Part shown: positions 10,077-33,162 of the stretch, one piece after another | How the letters are laid out: the number at the start of each line of letters is the position of its first letter | Position numbering within the stretch: position 1 is the stretch's first letter | Assembly (NCBI GenBank): GCA_964544475.1 | Contig: CAZJBS010000009.1 | Coordinates: forward strand, 11,639-75,638 | Direction: 5' to 3' | Length of the DNA: 64,000 nt | From: an uncultured Bacteroidota bacterium | Lineage (GTDB): Bacteria; CLD3; SB21 | The notes under the pieces: model-generated | Seen by the model: the letters and a program-made list of their open reading frames with translations, nothing else | Database searches by the model: none | Told to the model about the DNA's origin: nothing | Translations under genes and position numbers: made by a program

Positions 10077-10152
10077 TGGTGGGCCCTCAGGGATTTGAAC
10101 CCCGGACCAAAGGATTATGAGTCCTCTGCTCTAACCGCTGAGCTAAGGGCCC
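10077..10152 (-). tRNA. tRNA-Ile2 (CAT anticodon, lysidine type)
   Basis: GGGCCCTTAGCTCAGCGGTTAGAGCAGAGGACTCATAATCCTTTGGTCCGGGGTTCAAATCCCTGAGGGCCCACCA. Cloverleaf with anticodon CAT; body resembles ileX-type tRNA rather than Met/fMet; CCA encoded. Confidence 0.9.
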
Positions 10153-10163
10153 GAACGTCGGCC

Positions 10164-10192
10164 ATGATATGAAAAAAAGTGAACACTGGCAA
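10164..10192 (-). promoter_or_regulatory. Sigma70-type promoter of tRNA-Ile2
   Basis: TTGCCA-N17-TATCAT ending 12 nt before the tRNA 5' end. Confidence 0.7.
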
Positions 10193-25370: not shown

Positions 25371-26072
25371 ATGAAGCTGGTTTTGTTTGATATTGATGGG
25401 ACGTTATTGATTTGCGGGAAGGCCCCCAGAATGGCCATCACGTCTGCGATGGAACGGGTTTTTGGAACGAGTGGCCGGGCCTTGAACCATTCCTTCTCCG
25501 GAAAGACCGACCCACAAATTATTACCGAACTGATGACGATGGAAGGCCGGGGAGCGGAAGAGATTGCCGAAGGCATGCCCAGGGTCGTCCGTCACTACGT
25601 GGAGGAGTTGGACAGGACTCTGCAACCTGCCGAGATCCGGCGGCTCAATGGCGTGACGGAGCTTTTGGCGGCCCTGCGAATTCGCACGGATGTGCATCTT
25701 GGAATCCTGACTGGCAATGTTGAAGAAGGCGCTCGGATCAAGTTGGACCGTGCCGGGCTGGCCGAGATTTTCTTCAATAACGGGTCCACCGTGGGCGCCT
25801 TTGGCAGCGATGCCATCCATCGCAGCGAATTGCCGGCCGTCGCGGTGCAACGTGCAAGGCATGTCTTGAATCATGAGTTTCGATCGAAAGATATTATCAT
25901 CATCGGCGACAGCCCAAATGATATCCTGTGTGGCAAGAGTCTAAACGTTCGCTCGGTGGCCGTCGCCACAGGTTGGCATTCCATGGAAGAACTAAAGGCC
26001 TGCGAACCTGACTTCGCCTTCGCTACGCTGGCCGGCACACAGGAGATTGTGAATGCCATCGTCAGCAACTGA
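25371..26072 (+). CDS. HAD-superfamily hydrolase
   Basis: LFDIDGTL, LTGN, IGDSPND. Start set at ATG 25371. Confidence 0.88.
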   Translation: MKLVLFDIDGTLLICGKAPRMAITSAMERVFGTSGRALNHSFSGKTDPQIITELMTMEGRGAEEIAEGMPRVVRHYVEELDRTLQPAEIRRLNGVTELLAALRIRTDVHLGILTGNVEEGARIKLDRAGLAEIFFNNGSTVGAFGSDAIHRSELPAVAVQRARHVLNHEFRSKDIIIIGDSPNDILCGKSLNVRSVAVATGWHSMEELKACEPDFAFATLAGTQEIVNAIVSN

Positions 26073-28315: not shown

Positions 28316-29548
28316 ATGTTTTCCTCTCCGCCAAATAGTTCTCGCCTTCTGCTGTTGATCTTCGTGACCGCCCTGATTGACATGATTGGCTTTGGCATCA
28401 TCATTCCTATTCTTCCTTTTTTTGCCGAGCACTATGGGGCGGACGCACTGACGATCGGATTTCTCACGGCGGTCTTCTTGATGATTCAGTTTTTTTCCGC
28501 TCCGGCCTGGGGTAATCTGTCCGACCGTCTGGGGCGACGTCCGGTTCTTTTGACCTGTATTTTTGCGACGGCGGCGTCCTACGTGGTTTTCGGAATGGCG
28601 GAATCCCTTGCAGTACTCTTCCTGGCCAGGATCATGGGCGGCCTATTTGCGGGCAAATACTCTACCATTCAAGCCTACATCGCCGACGTCACGTCGCCGA
28701 AAGATCGTTCCAAGGGCATGGGCCTGTTTGGAGCCGCCTTTGGCCTCGGATTCATACTTGGTCCTGTACTTGGCGGCTTATTGGGACGTTGGGGTTATGC
28801 CGCCCCGCTTTTTTTTGCCGCGGCTCTGACGACACTGAATGGTGTCGCGGTATTCTACTTGTTACCGGAGTCACTCTCCCCGGAGGCCAAAGGCCGGATC
28901 CGGCGTCAGAAGGACATGTCATCAACGAAAGCATATACCCTCCGGTCCATCATGACCGATCAAACTGTCAGCCATTCGATATTGATTTCCGCAGTTTTCA
29001 ACGGGGCCTTTTCGATGCTTTATGCCACATTTGCCCTTTTTAATGAACGGGAATTTGGGTTCCACACGACAGAGACTGGCTACATTTTCGCCTATATCGG
29101 AGTTGTTGGCGCTGTAGTGCAGGGTGGCATGATCGGCCGGTTGAGCCGGAAGTTCGGTGAGGAGACGCTTGTCAAGACCGGACTGGTCATCATGACGGCG
29201 GGTATGTTTATGCTGTCACTGGCGGACACCGTGGAGAGACTGATTGCGGCGGGCACTTTGGTGGCCGCAGGGAGCGGCTTGTTGACGCCGGCGTTGTCCG
29301 GCTTGGTATCCCGAAGAACGCCGGACTTCCGGCAAGGCCGCGTGCTGGGTGTGATGCAATCCGCAGGTAATCTTGGTCGGATGGCGGGCATGATTGGTGG
29401 AGGGTATGTTTTTGACTCCGTCAGCCTATGGTCTCCATTCTGGATCTCGGGAATAATACTAACTTTGGCTACTGCGTATTCCATGCGAATGATCCATTCG
29501 GTCAATGCAACGGATTCACTGCCATTTGCAGGAGAAGTTCATGAGTGA
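28316..29548 (+). CDS. MFS transporter, TetA/DHA1-like
   Basis: [12 protein letters not shown] motif [29 protein letters not shown]. Start set at ATG 28316. Confidence 0.92.
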
Positions 29549-31136
29549 AACAAAAAAGAAATCACAGCGTCGAGAATCTTTCGAAACCGATTCGAACATC
29601 ACCATTCCGGCCTTCCTGGATTCGTACGCCTCGGACGATAAGAAGCACTTGGGCCATCCTGGCGAATACCCTTTCACCCGGGGAGTTCAGAATACGATGT
29701 ATCGTGGGAGGTTCTGGACGATGAGGCAATATGCCGGCTTCGGTAATGCTGAGGAATCGAACAAACGCTACAAATACCTTCTTTCGCAGGGGACGATGGG
29801 ACTTTCCGTGGCATTTGATCTGCCCACGCAAATCGGCTATGATTGTGACCATCCGCTCGCCGACGGCGAAGTCGGCAAGGTTGGCGTTTCCATTTCTTCC
29901 CTGGAGGACATGGAGACCTTGTTTGATGGTATTCCATTAGGCAAAATATCGACGTCCATGACGATCAACGCCACGGCCGCCATCTTGTTGAGTCTGTATG
30001 TGGCCGTCGCGCGCAAGCGGGGCATTGCGTTGAATCAGCTTGCCGGCACAATCCAAAATGATGTACTCAAAGAGTATGTGGCACGGGGAACCTACATTTA
30101 TCCGCCGAAACCCTCCATGCGCATCATTACAGATATCTTCAGCTATTGCGCAAGGAACCTGCCGAAATGGAACATGATCTCAATCAGTGGATACCACATT
30201 CGGGAAGCAGGATCAACCGCTGTTCAGGAACTGGCCTTCACTTTTTCGAACGGTATCGCGTATGTGAAAGCCGCTTTGGATGCCGGCCTGGACGTCGACG
30301 ACTTTGCCTCCCGTCTCAGTTTTTTTTTCAACGCCCACAGTCATTTCTTTGAAGAGGTGGCAAAATTCAGGGCCGCGAGGCGCATTTGGGCGCGGATCAT
30401 GAAGGAGAGGTTCCAGGCCAAGGATCCGAAAAGCATGATGCTGCGTTTTCACACGCAGACCGGTGGGTCCACGTTAACCGCCCAGCAGCCCTACAACAAT
30501 ATTCCACGCGTTACGCTTCAGGCCCTGGCCGCCGTTCTGGGAGGTACACAGAGTCTGCACACGAATTCCTTTGATGAAGCCCTCGCGCTGCCAACAGAGA
30601 AATCAGCGGAAATCGCGCTCAGGACACAACAGGTGGTGGCATTCGAGAGCGGCGTGGCCGACACAATCGACCCTTTGGCGGGAAGCTATTATGTGGAATA
30701 TCTCACCGATACGATTGAGAAATTGGCCTTTGAGTATATTGACAGGGTCGAAGCCATGGGTGGCTCGATTGCGGCCATAGAAAAGGGATTCTTTCAATCG
30801 GAAATCGCCGACGCCAGCTACCGGTACCAAAAAGCAATTGAGAAGAAGGACAAGATCATTGTGGGGCTCAATGACTTCAAGTCCGACCACGAAACGCCGA
30901 TGGAAATCCTGCGCCTGGATCCCTTGCTGGAGGAGCGTCAGAAAGCCAAAATAGCCAGGCTTCGCCGGCAGCGAAATGAAGCCGCGGTAGCCGAGAAACT
31001 TGCTGCTTTACGAAAAGCGGCATTGGGTTCCGACAATCTTCTTCCATACATTCTGGATAGCGTGGAGGTTTATGCCACGTTGGGCGAAATCGCCGATGTG
31101 ATGCGGGGTGCGTTCGGTGAGTATCGATCTTCCTGA
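29541..31136 (+). CDS. Methylmalonyl-CoA mutase family, substrate-binding subunit (no cobalamin-binding domain)
   Basis: [59 protein letters not shown]; ends without DxHxxG. Confidence 0.93.
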
Positions 31137-31200
31137 AAAAAAACCCAGGGTGAGGGTAGCCCTGGGTTTGTAGAAGAGGTTGTTTCCAACCTCTCTTGGG
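31137..31200 (-). ncRNA. Candidate ~65 nt small RNA (two hairpins, own promoter and terminator)
   Basis: Minus strand CCCAAGAGAGGTTG-GAAA-CAACCTCTTCTAC-AAACCCAGGG-CTACCCTCA-CCCTGGGTTT-TTTT, downstream of TTGCCA-N17-TATATT. Confidence 0.55.
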
Positions 31201-31206
31201 GGATCA

Positions 31207-31235
31207 AATATAACATCGAATTCCGACGTTGGCAA
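31207..31235 (-). promoter_or_regulatory. Sigma70-type promoter pointing into a non-coding region
   Basis: TTGCCA (31235-31230)-N17-TATATT (31212-31207); same -35 hexamer as the tRNA-Ile2 promoter. Confidence 0.6.
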
Positions 31236-31286
31236 GAAGATCGTCATCTTCTGTCGCTTCCGGTTTTTTTTTGACGCCGACACGCG

Positions 31287-31310
31287 TATTTCAGCTAAGA
31301 TGCTGAAATA
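31287..31310. promoter_or_regulatory. Palindromic operator candidate between divergent promoters
   Basis: TATTTCAGC-TAAGAT-GCTGAAATA, perfect 9 bp inverted repeat. Confidence 0.45.
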
Positions 31311-31312
31311 TT

Positions 31313-31341
31313 TTGCTTTTTCTAACTTGTTGCCGTATATT
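31313..31341 (+). promoter_or_regulatory. Sigma70-type promoter of recJ
   Basis: TTGCTT-N17-TATATT in an AT-rich region upstream of recJ. Confidence 0.6.
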
Positions 31342-31434
31342 AATAATGTATTGGTTACTTTGGATTTATGGGGGCTTATTCTTCACAAGATTTTGATAAT
31401 AAACTACTTATGATAAACAAATTAACCACAATCT

Positions 31435-33162
31435 ATGCTCGAACAGCAATGGGTGCTGAACAATCATCATGACAAGGAGCGAGTACATAGTCTAGCCAAT
31501 CAAATCAATGTCCCAGAATTAATCGCTAATATCCTGTTTAATCGTGGGATAATGACTTTCGATGACGCGAAGAACTTTTTTCGTGCCGAAAGTGCTCCTC
31601 TCCATGATCCTTTTCTGATGCACAATATGGACCTCGCCGTTGATCGCGTAATCAAGGCGATCACCAACCGCGAGGCCATCATGATTTACGGTGACTATGA
31701 CGTAGACGGTACTACCAGTACGTCTATGTTGTATCTTTTTCTCAAAGAGATACATCGTGGCTCCCTGACTTACTATATTCCTGACCGGGTCAAAGAAGGC
31801 TATGGCTTGTCGCCGTACGGCATCAATGCGGCGAATGCGCTGGGCGTAAAGCTGCTGATCGCTGTGGATTGCGGCATCACGGCCATCAATCAGGTCGACC
31901 TTGCCAACCAATATGGCATTGATATTATCATCTGTGATCACCACCATCCTGGTGACATTCTCCCGAGGGCAGCGGCCATTTTGAATCCAAAGCAGGAGGC
32001 TTGCAGTTACCCTTTCAAGGAGCTTTGCGGCGTGGGCGTGGCCTTCAAGCTGGCCCAGGGGATTACGGAAACTCTCAAAATCGACCGGAATATTCTGATG
32101 CAGCACCTGGATCTGGTGGCCATTGGCAGCGCCGCGGATATTGTGCCTTTGATTGGTGAGAACCGGACGCTGGTGAAGAACGGACTCAAACTGGTGACCG
32201 ATGCCGGCAAAGTTGGCATTCGGCAACTGATTAAGAACGCGAATATTTTTGGCAAACCCATTTCCACCGCCCAAATCGTATTCTCTCTGGCGCCCCGAAT
32301 CAATGCTGTCGGCCGTCTTGGAGACGCCAATCGCGCCGTCAAATTGCTGATCTGCAAGTCAGAAACCGAAGCGGTCGAATATGCCAGCGTTCTGGAATCT
32401 GAAAATCGCAATCGGCGCGATCTCAACGAGGTGATGTTTCTCGAGGCGTGCGAAATTGTGGACAGCGAGTTCGATTTTGAGAAAGACAAGGTCATCGTCG
32501 TGTACAAGAAAGGCTGGCACCAGGGGGTCATTGGGATTGTGGCCAGCAAACTTGTCGAACGGTACTATCGCCCCGCCATTGTCATTGCGGAGGCGGATGA
32601 CAAGGGTAAGGGGTCGGCCAGAAGCGTCGAAAATTTCGATGTATTCCAGGCGTTGAAATCGTGCGAGGACCTCATGGTGGGGTACGGAGGTCACAAATAC
32701 GCCGCCGGCCTGACCATCGAATTGCAAAAAGTTCCTGAACTCAGAAAACGTCTCAACGCCTATGCCGCGATCAATCTCCCGCCGGAAGACCTGGTACCAA
32801 AAATCCAGATCGATTCTGAAATACGTCTGGATGAAATTGATCAACGCTTGATTACGCTTCTCAATCTTTTCAAGCCTTTCGGGCCGTCCAATATGCGTCC
32901 GGTCTTTCTTTCCTCCAATCTGCAAATTGTCGGATATCCGCAGTTGATGAATGAGCGACATATTCGCCTTAAGGTTCGCCAGAATGGTACCGTGCTGGAT
33001 GCGGTGGGCTTCAACCTCGGCCATCACTATAACGCCATCGGCGTTGGTGACAAGCTGGTGGATCTGGTTTATCAGATTGACGAAAATACCTGGATGGGCC
33101 GCACGACCATTCAGTTGAAGATCAAAGATCTTAAGATACACAGCAACGGCAATTCCAGGTAA
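31435..33162 (+). CDS. recJ: Single-stranded-DNA-specific exonuclease RecJ
   Basis: YGDYDVDG, IPDRVKEGYG, VDCG, CDHH, APRINAVGRL, GSARS, GGHKYAAG. Confidence 0.97.
   Translation: MLEQQWVLNNHHDKERVHSLANQINVPELIANILFNRGIMTFDDAKNFFRAESAPLHDPFLMHNMDLAVDRVIKAITNREAIMIYGDYDVDGTTSTSMLYLFLKEIHRGSLTYYIPDRVKEGYGLSPYGINAANALGVKLLIAVDCGITAINQVDLANQYGIDIIICDHHHPGDILPRAAAILNPKQEACSYPFKELCGVGVAFKLAQGITETLKIDRNILMQHLDLVAIGSAADIVPLIGENRTLVKNGLKLVTDAGKVGIRQLIKNANIFGKPISTAQIVFSLAPRINAVGRLGDANRAVKLLICKSETEAVEYASVLESENRNRRDLNEVMFLEACEIVDSEFDFEKDKVIVVYKKGWHQGVIGIVASKLVERYYRPAIVIAEADDKGKGSARSVENFDVFQALKSCEDLMVGYGGHKYAAGLTIELQKVPELRKRLNAYAAINLPPEDLVPKIQIDSEIRLDEIDQRLITLLNLFKPFGPSNMRPVFLSSNLQIVGYPQLMNERHIRLKVRQNGTVLDAVGFNLGHHYNAIGVGDKLVDLVYQIDENTWMGRTTIQLKIKDLKIHSNGNSR

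Follow-up and report, generated by a model that had tools for sequence, protein, structure and literature searches.

Between the gene for the large subunit of methylmalonyl-CoA mutase and recJ in an uncultured sludge bacterium lies a spacer of 298 nt, whose minus strand carries a candidate unit of about 65 nt with a promoter-like site, two hairpins and a run of U. Both flanking protein genes, mutase and recJ, are read in the same direction, from the plus strand. The question is what this unit does there. It was initially annotated as a candidate small RNA gene. Alternatively, no discrete RNA may be made from it at all: the hairpins would then be 3′-UTR and terminator structure of the mutase, hairpin 2 would serve as a bidirectional terminator or insulator, and the promoter would be a chance match. 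A further alternative is that the unit is an inert remnant, left by a segment that was duplicated or mobile. It might come from the 3′ end of a minus-strand gene since lost, or be a small insertion between mutase and recJ, and the parts of it that resemble a promoter and a terminator would be relics.

The mutase–recJ spacer

The window, which is the whole stretch of DNA analysed (64 kb), matches contigs of sludge and bioreactor metagenomes. The features of the locus are collected in Table 1. A scan of the spacer for open reading frames found no credible one, in agreement with the initial annotation of the unit, and a small protein or toxin gene is thereby ruled out. The longest open reading frame of the mutase starts inside the preceding MFS transporter gene, with an overlap of 44 nt (29505–29548). 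Since the homologues of the mutase, which are 520–536 aa long, align from about residue 10–20, the true start may be further downstream.

Table 1. Features of the mutase–recJ locus, in window coordinates
Feature	Position	Strand	Remarks
Methylmalonyl-CoA mutase large-subunit gene	29505–31136	+	PF01642; convergent with the unit; TGA stop at 31134–31136
Left arm of inverted repeat around the unit	31125–31135	.	11 bp, 10/11 matches
U8 run of minus-strand intrinsic terminator	31136–31143	-	A8 run on the plus strand
Hairpin 2, AAACCCAGGG-CUACCCUCA-CCCUGGGUUU (putative terminator stem)	31141–31169	-	10 bp, 6 GC pairs
Linker UCUAC between the hairpins	31170–31174	-	
Hairpin 1, AGAGGUUG-GAAA-CAACCUCU	31175–31194	-	8 bp; GNRA-type loop, minus strand only
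Predicted transcription start (about 31200) and 5′ end	31196–31202	-	Predicted from the spacing to the -10
Candidate extended -10, TGtTATATT	31207–31215	-	-10 hexamer at 31212–31207; 17 nt from the -35
Candidate -35 hexamer, TTGCCA	31230–31235	-	Same hexamer as in the tRNA(CAU) promoter at 10192
Right arm of inverted repeat	31233–31243	.	Overlaps the -35 by 3 nt
Terminator-like hairpin followed by UUUUGCUUUUU	31286–31321	+	10 bp, −13.4 kcal/mol, z = −4.2; likely 3′ end of mutase mRNA
Putative recJ promoter, TTGCTT-N17-TATATT	31313–31341	+	Conserved in relatives
recJ	31435–33162	+	

Candidate promoter and predicted start site

The candidate promoter, TTGCCA-N17-(TG)TATATT, scores 10/12 at the level of sequence. 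It lies where the initial annotation had put it, and its -35 hexamer is indeed the same as that of a tRNA promoter in the window; the gap between the -10 and hairpin 1, given there as about 7 nt, is in fact 12 nt. A promoter census over 128 kb of strand returned 15 sites of at least 10/12, one of them the tRNA(CAU) promoter, and just two of the 15 have a TG before the -10. By our own arithmetic, chance would put a site of at least 10/12 into the 100 nt upstream of a given terminator, on the strand of that terminator, in about 1% of cases. A correctly placed promoter of this quality, with an extended -10, argues against the reading as mutase 3′-UTR structure with a chance promoter match, and so does the finding that no strong minus-strand promoter was seen further upstream of it.

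If this sigma-70-type promoter (TTGCCA-N17-TGnTATATT) is active, it would start transcription near 31200. The sequence around this position includes CCCCC at 31202–31198 of the minus strand, which is unpaired in the computed folds.

The tRNA that shares the -35 hexamer (10077–10152, minus strand) has the anticodon CAU and is called as tRNA-Met by ARAGORN. Its promoter, TTGCCA-N17-TATCAT, ends 11 nt 5′ of the mature tRNA end. We take this tRNA to resemble E. coli ileX (tRNA-Ile2) closely, which makes its earlier label plausible. Just upstream of the candidate promoter of the unit is a homopolymer, T9 at 31264–31272, which is T10 in a co-occurring strain (X25–X28, X35, X39, X46).

Hairpins and terminators

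From a start near 31200, a 64-nt RNA is predicted. Its 5′ end would be short and rich in C, followed by a hairpin with a GAAA loop and by the terminator hairpin, and the RNA would end in the U8 at 31143–31136. For the fold of the 64-mer into the two hairpins, the energy is −29.7 kcal/mol. Shuffled sequences average −15.9 kcal/mol (z = −5.15), and of 200 not one is as stable. The loop of hairpin 2, CUACCCUCA, is 9 nt long (31159–31151). Three U of the U8 run belong to the stem of hairpin 2, and the last U overlaps the A of the mutase TGA. The two hairpins and the U run are thus all present as initially annotated, and hairpin 2, with a 10-bp stem and U8, has the make-up of a terminator in the minus orientation, as far as its sequence can tell.

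The whole window was scanned for canonical terminators, for which the stem had to be 6 bp or longer with no fewer than 4 GC pairs, and the 8 nt behind it had to include 6 T or more. Nine sites in the 64 kb answer to this definition. Of the six that are intergenic, five are co-oriented with a gene or tRNA, and four of these lie 9–29 nt past the stop codon or tRNA end. It follows that this genome uses textbook terminators, normally on the strand of the gene that they serve. Hairpin 2, which has the longest T run, is the single orphan among the six, with no minus-strand gene upstream of it. The minus-strand architecture of promoter, hairpins and terminator is real and statistically unusual, and it is unlikely to have arisen by chance.

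The position of hairpin 2, which begins 5 nt past the mutase stop codon and therefore near the spacing of 9–29 nt typical of the genome, is what would be expected if it belonged to the mutase transcript. In that case, it might end or pause mutase transcription and stop antisense transcription from the recJ promoter region from entering the mutase. In E. coli, terminators that act in both directions are widespread where transcription units oppose each other, according to the passage of PMC13500782 that cites Ju et al. 2019, which adds to the plausibility of such a role. Against it stands the tail of hairpin 2 on the plus strand, UUUGUAGA, which has only 4 U in 8, whereas the co-oriented terminators of the window that were checked have at least 6.

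Because hairpin 2 with the tail UUUGUAGA is weak and is followed by a stronger terminator at 31286–31321, read-through from the mutase is probable. The terminator that abuts the mutase stop would probably act on both strands, as a strong terminator of the small RNA and a weak one of the mutase, and mutase transcripts would probably run on to the plus-strand terminator. The T-rich tail of the latter overlaps the -35 of the recJ promoter. In L083, a relative with the same gene order (see below), a weaker hairpin, GCAATTC/GAATTGC, is found at the equivalent place, before the same TTTGCTTTTT.

The unit is surrounded by an inverted repeat with the arms CGATCTTCCTG and CAAGAAGATCG, which match at 10 of 11 positions and would be in keeping with an inserted segment. 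The GAAGAT motif of this repeat also forms a small hairpin at 31235–31252. An invertible segment between the two arms was considered and ruled out, since its inversion would remove the mutase stop codon, which is sited where the homologues end.

The recJ upstream region

The 120-nt region before recJ is far better conserved between the window and two relatives than the remainder of the spacer (window 31313–31434; L083 5670–5794; L085 6330–6453). Within it, a leader of about 90 nt has the invariant blocks ATTGGT, a GGGTTTA-like block, GATAATAAACTA and ATGATAAACAAATTA; this leader has no match in Rfam. In the real metatranscriptomes recJ is covered at a depth of 32–63. The furthest-upstream RNA contigs of recJ begin at 31345, 31360 (adaptor-bounded) and 31364, and those of other runs begin at 31408–31457. 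Since the furthest contigs begin at 31345–31364, the starts fit the promoter at 31313–31341 and a leader of about 90 nt. The conserved region upstream of recJ may be a regulatory leader.

A second copy in the same genome

Contigs assembled from four DNA runs were aligned to 31100–31300 of the window at 80% likeness. In each of the four (X1, X2, X4 and X5), a second contig was found that matches 31138–31167 exactly, over 30 nt, and nothing else. The match consists of hairpin 2 including its loop. The depths of the second and the expected contig correspond, at 120/123, 4.7/6.5, 9.1/9.1 and 14.9/15.1 in the four runs. In X1, this second copy is located at positions 26000–26029 of a contig of 37,072 nt, outside the window.

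About 90 nt of copy 2 can be read, including flanks of 30 nt. In the minus orientation it runs ...AGGTT-CCCC-AACCTCT GGGCTACGATAGAG [ACCCAGGGCTACCCTCACCCTGGGTTTTTT] ATTTTCATAATTTTC... and contains, in the same relative position as hairpin 1 of the window copy, a hairpin-1-like element. This element has the same stem letters as copy 1, AGGTT/AACCT followed by CT, with the loop CCCC in place of GAAA. The linker to the exact match is longer than in the window copy, can be aligned with it and still contains CTAC. The tail of copy 2 is U6AU4, and 3′ of the U run the two loci are unrelated. A similarity that ends after the U run is what a transcription unit in the minus orientation should show where it stops, and the two copies fit the pattern expected of paralogous small transcription units that end there. 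A plus-strand terminator does not easily account for them: when copy 2 is read in the plus direction, a U tract is altogether missing, as against the U6AU4 in the other direction, which counts against hairpins that serve only the mutase transcript.

Copy 2 varies between strains. It was not detected in X25, X46 and X39, runs with a strain that is about 99.5% identical and has T10 at 31264–31272. Because of this variability, the identity over 30 nt may reflect a recent duplication and not selection on the loop, and the presence of copy 2 in X1, X2, X4 and X5 and its absence from the other three runs would suit the remnant of a duplicated or mobile segment. Such a remnant gives no reason for the intact hairpin, loop and U run of both copies when their flanks differ. 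Neither a search that allowed 3 mismatches nor short-word BLAST revealed a further copy in the 64 kb of the window. A REP- or MITE-like family is ruled out by the presence of only two copies in the genome and by the lack of convincing element ends or a target duplication, and the low copy number also tells against a mobile remnant of this type.

Known families and relatives

When the unit was compared with Rfam 15, no family reached its gathering score, and only two tRNAs reached the threshold in the window. A comparison at permissive thresholds brought up nothing specific either. The best match below threshold was NsiR1 (RF02399), with 18.9 bits against a cut-off of 39 (E = 0.33 in a search of 601 nt). 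IsrM scored 17.8 bits against 376. Both alignments lie mainly over the generic terminator hairpin and the U tail. The Betaproteobacteria toxic sRNA and Hrs1 also stayed below their gathering scores. That the unit could not initially be assigned to a known family is consistent with these searches.

Relatives were compared via the mutase, for which 80 genome loci and 120 protein clusters were taken. The closest mutases in species-representative genomes are 72–78% identical and come from metagenome-assembled genomes labelled “Bacteroidota bacterium” or “bacterium”; the DNA downstream of them is not syntenic. In a collection of 5.8 billion proteins, the cluster of the window mutase itself (99%) is followed by one at 80% (P0002) and then by clusters at 77% or less.

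Two loci have a gene order that permits a direct comparison of the spacer. L083, with a mutase of 80% identity, keeps the order QueF, response regulator, LOG-like, MFS, mutase, recJ, hydrolase and aminotransferase. Its mutase–recJ spacer measures 198 nt, compared with 298 nt in the window, and the missing part is the unit. At this place, L083 has nothing that aligns with the unit or resembles a promoter or terminator, and its sequence does not fold significantly. In L085, which is also syntenic and has a mutase of 76% identity, the unit is absent and the spacer is occupied by a ydjM-like gene. A remnant of ydjM is ruled out as the origin of the unit, which has no similarity to the ydjM of L085.

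The absence from both L083 and L085 shows the unit to be specific to the lineage of the window, and the structural conservation in relatives that the initial annotation had looked to the mutase–recJ intergenic region for is not seen there. This absence suits hairpins without an RNA of their own. It suits equally a small insertion, since the unit is found only in the species of the window and the spacer of L083 is shorter by just this part; the spacer of L085 offers no source for such a remnant, and neither a transposase nor a gene fragment is found in the spacer of the window.

Searches of wider collections gave no further homologue. The exact 23-mer of hairpin 2 has no match in JGI metagenome contigs and none in viral contigs. 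A degenerate pattern, made from the loop and the T run with the stem left free, gave 58 matches, which is the number expected by chance, and none of them has a stem longer than 4 bp. Copy 2 within the same genome is the only homologue found.

Strain variation and RNA data

In strain L082, 13 of 5220 positions are changed relative to the window; three of the changes fall within 31193–31253, and two of these inside the 100-nt unit. The change C>T at 31193 turns the second pair of hairpin 1 into A·C in a minus-strand RNA and into G·U in a plus-strand RNA. Pairing is thus kept only in plus-strand RNA, as would be expected if the hairpin were part of the mutase transcript. The change at 31224 falls in the promoter spacer, and that at 31253 lies outside the unit. 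The promoter hexamers and hairpin 2 are unchanged. SNP density is higher in the spacer than in the flanking genes, which is compatible with an inert remnant. From these small numbers, there is no sign of strong constraint on the unit.

The available RNA data are unstranded Logan contigs. Several runs that are labelled metatranscriptomic consist of long contigs with a flat depth, of 4.5–35 kb across genes and spacers alike in X25–X28 and of 1.7–5 kb in X46. Because they behave like DNA, these runs are unfit as evidence for expression. Elsewhere, the unit is covered patchily by unstranded contigs, at a depth of 2–5 in four runs, and has zero depth in six others, and three runs in which recJ reaches a depth of 32–54 have zero coverage of the unit.

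The contigs that cover the unit extend over 31125–31275 (X33), 31138–31301 (X35), 31156–31379 (X29) and 31169–31319 (X34). All four run past the predicted 5′ end of the 64-nt RNA and therefore do not represent it; mutase 3′ UTR, a longer minus-strand RNA or DNA background are possible sources. The continuation of the contigs upstream of the proposed start site, to 31275, 31301, 31319 and 31379, fits longer transcripts on either strand and favours hairpins that belong to such transcripts. The ends of two contigs coincide with terminator tails on opposite strands and pull in opposite directions. The X35 contig ends at 31138, inside the U run, and the mutase 3′ end has zero depth in this sequencing run, which counts towards a minus-strand RNA. 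The X34 contig ends at 31319, within the T tail of the plus-strand terminator at 31286–31321, as would be expected of a mutase transcript that includes the hairpins. No discrete species of about 65 nt is seen among the unstranded contigs of low depth. Libraries of this kind usually lose RNAs of about 65 nt, and the unstranded RNA data neither support nor refute a small RNA.

Nature of the unit

The best explanation is a lineage-specific, independently transcribed small RNA gene of about 60–65 nt on the minus strand, which would share a bidirectional terminator with the mutase. This is put forward tentatively, as a reading that may well be right but falls somewhat short of probable. The initial view of the unit as a small RNA is strengthened by the promoter, the structure, the terminator and copy 2. 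The absence of the unit from the relatives and from the metagenome and viral scans speaks against it, as do the broken minus-strand pair of hairpin 1 in L082 and RNA contigs that are unstranded, of low depth and longer than the predicted RNA.

That there is no discrete RNA, and that the hairpins are structure at the 3′ end of the mutase transcript next to a chance promoter match, is the main alternative, a serious possibility, if a rather doubtful one. The asymmetry of the tails of hairpin 2, the placing of the promoter and the make-up of copy 2 weigh against it; the closeness to the mutase stop, the extent of the RNA contigs, the G·U pair in L082 and the absence of the unit from relatives weigh in its favour. 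An origin as an inert leftover of duplicated or mobile DNA is improbable.

Possible modes of action

If mutase transcripts do read through to the terminator at 31286–31321, a small RNA from the unit would be perfectly antisense to the mutase 3′ UTR and could act in cis on the mutase mRNA. It could also act in trans, through two stretches that are predicted to be unpaired, CCCCC at the 5′ end and ACCCUCA in the loop of hairpin 2.

The initial annotation had pointed to the latter as an anti-Shine-Dalgarno-like loop, an idea that the 64-kb window does not bear out through any excess of complementary sites. With at most one mismatch allowed, TGAGGGTAG occurs at 4 sites, compared with 6.7 expected. 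Prediction of targets with the loop as seed, which had been suggested as a check, gave no signal above shuffled seeds in the window: duplex energies against its 57 start regions were no better than theirs. By a rough count, a Shine-Dalgarno-like motif precedes under half of the crude gene calls. Action in trans via the C-rich patches is possible but unsupported.

A more far-reaching proposal sees the unit and copy 2 as the first two representatives of a family of paralogous regulatory RNAs, each about 65 nt long, in an uncultured FCB-group bacterium from wastewater. In this family, the invariant loop CUACCCUCA and a second C-rich patch would pair with G-rich sites in mRNAs, and the window copy would act in addition as a cis-antisense RNA on the mutase 3′ UTR. 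In this full form the proposal is unlikely.

To our knowledge, post-transcriptional regulation in uncultured FCB-group bacteria of sludge and bioreactors is essentially uncharted. If it is a small RNA gene, the unit would be one of very few described for these bacteria. It would also make a simple, testable case of regulation between convergent units, in which an RNA antisense to the 3′ UTR of an enzyme of the propionate/succinate pathway shares its terminator with the gene of that enzyme. Small RNA candidates that are restricted to one species and recognized by promoter, hairpin and terminator are common, and most have no known function; no general concept is changed by this unit.

Comparison with known systems

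Hairpin 2 has several features of the bidirectional intrinsic terminators described by Ju et al. 2019, as they are represented in the passage of PMC13500782 that cites this work. It is GC-rich and lies between an A run and a T run, and it would stand at the junction between a gene and an opposing unit. Compared with the terminators in that account, two things are different. The flanking protein genes point in the same direction, and there is an opposing unit only if the small RNA is real. Moreover, the asymmetry of hairpin 2, with A8 on one side and T3 on the other, favours the strand that has no gene.

NsiR1 (RF02399) and the unit have in common a small hairpin, a linker and a terminator hairpin with a U tail, in a total of about 60 nt. 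NsiR1, however, is a cyanobacterial family, and the match of the unit to it, at 18.9 of the required 39 bits, comes from the generic terminator.

Among small RNAs with several copies, the pair formed by the unit and copy 2 resembles OmrA/OmrB and Qrr1–5, in which one functional end is identical and the rest has diverged. Here the identical end is the terminator hairpin with its loop, in a comparison that extends over the roughly 90 nt of copy 2. Unlike those RNAs, copy 2 is missing from a near-identical strain, and there is no conservation across species.

The RsaE/RoxS-type C-rich small RNAs of Firmicutes are similar to the unit in their short size (about 65–110 nt), own promoter, two hairpins and intrinsic terminator. 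There is no match in sequence or structure between them, and RsaE, which is in Rfam, is absent even from the matches below threshold. The unit comes from another phylum, a metagenome-assembled genome of the FCB group, and its C-rich motif is placed in the terminator loop. What the two would share is the use of unpaired C-rich motifs: the CCCCC and ACCCUCA of the unit, like the CCCC in loop 1 of its second copy, might base-pair with ribosome-binding sites that are rich in G. RoxS is discussed in PMC8216469.
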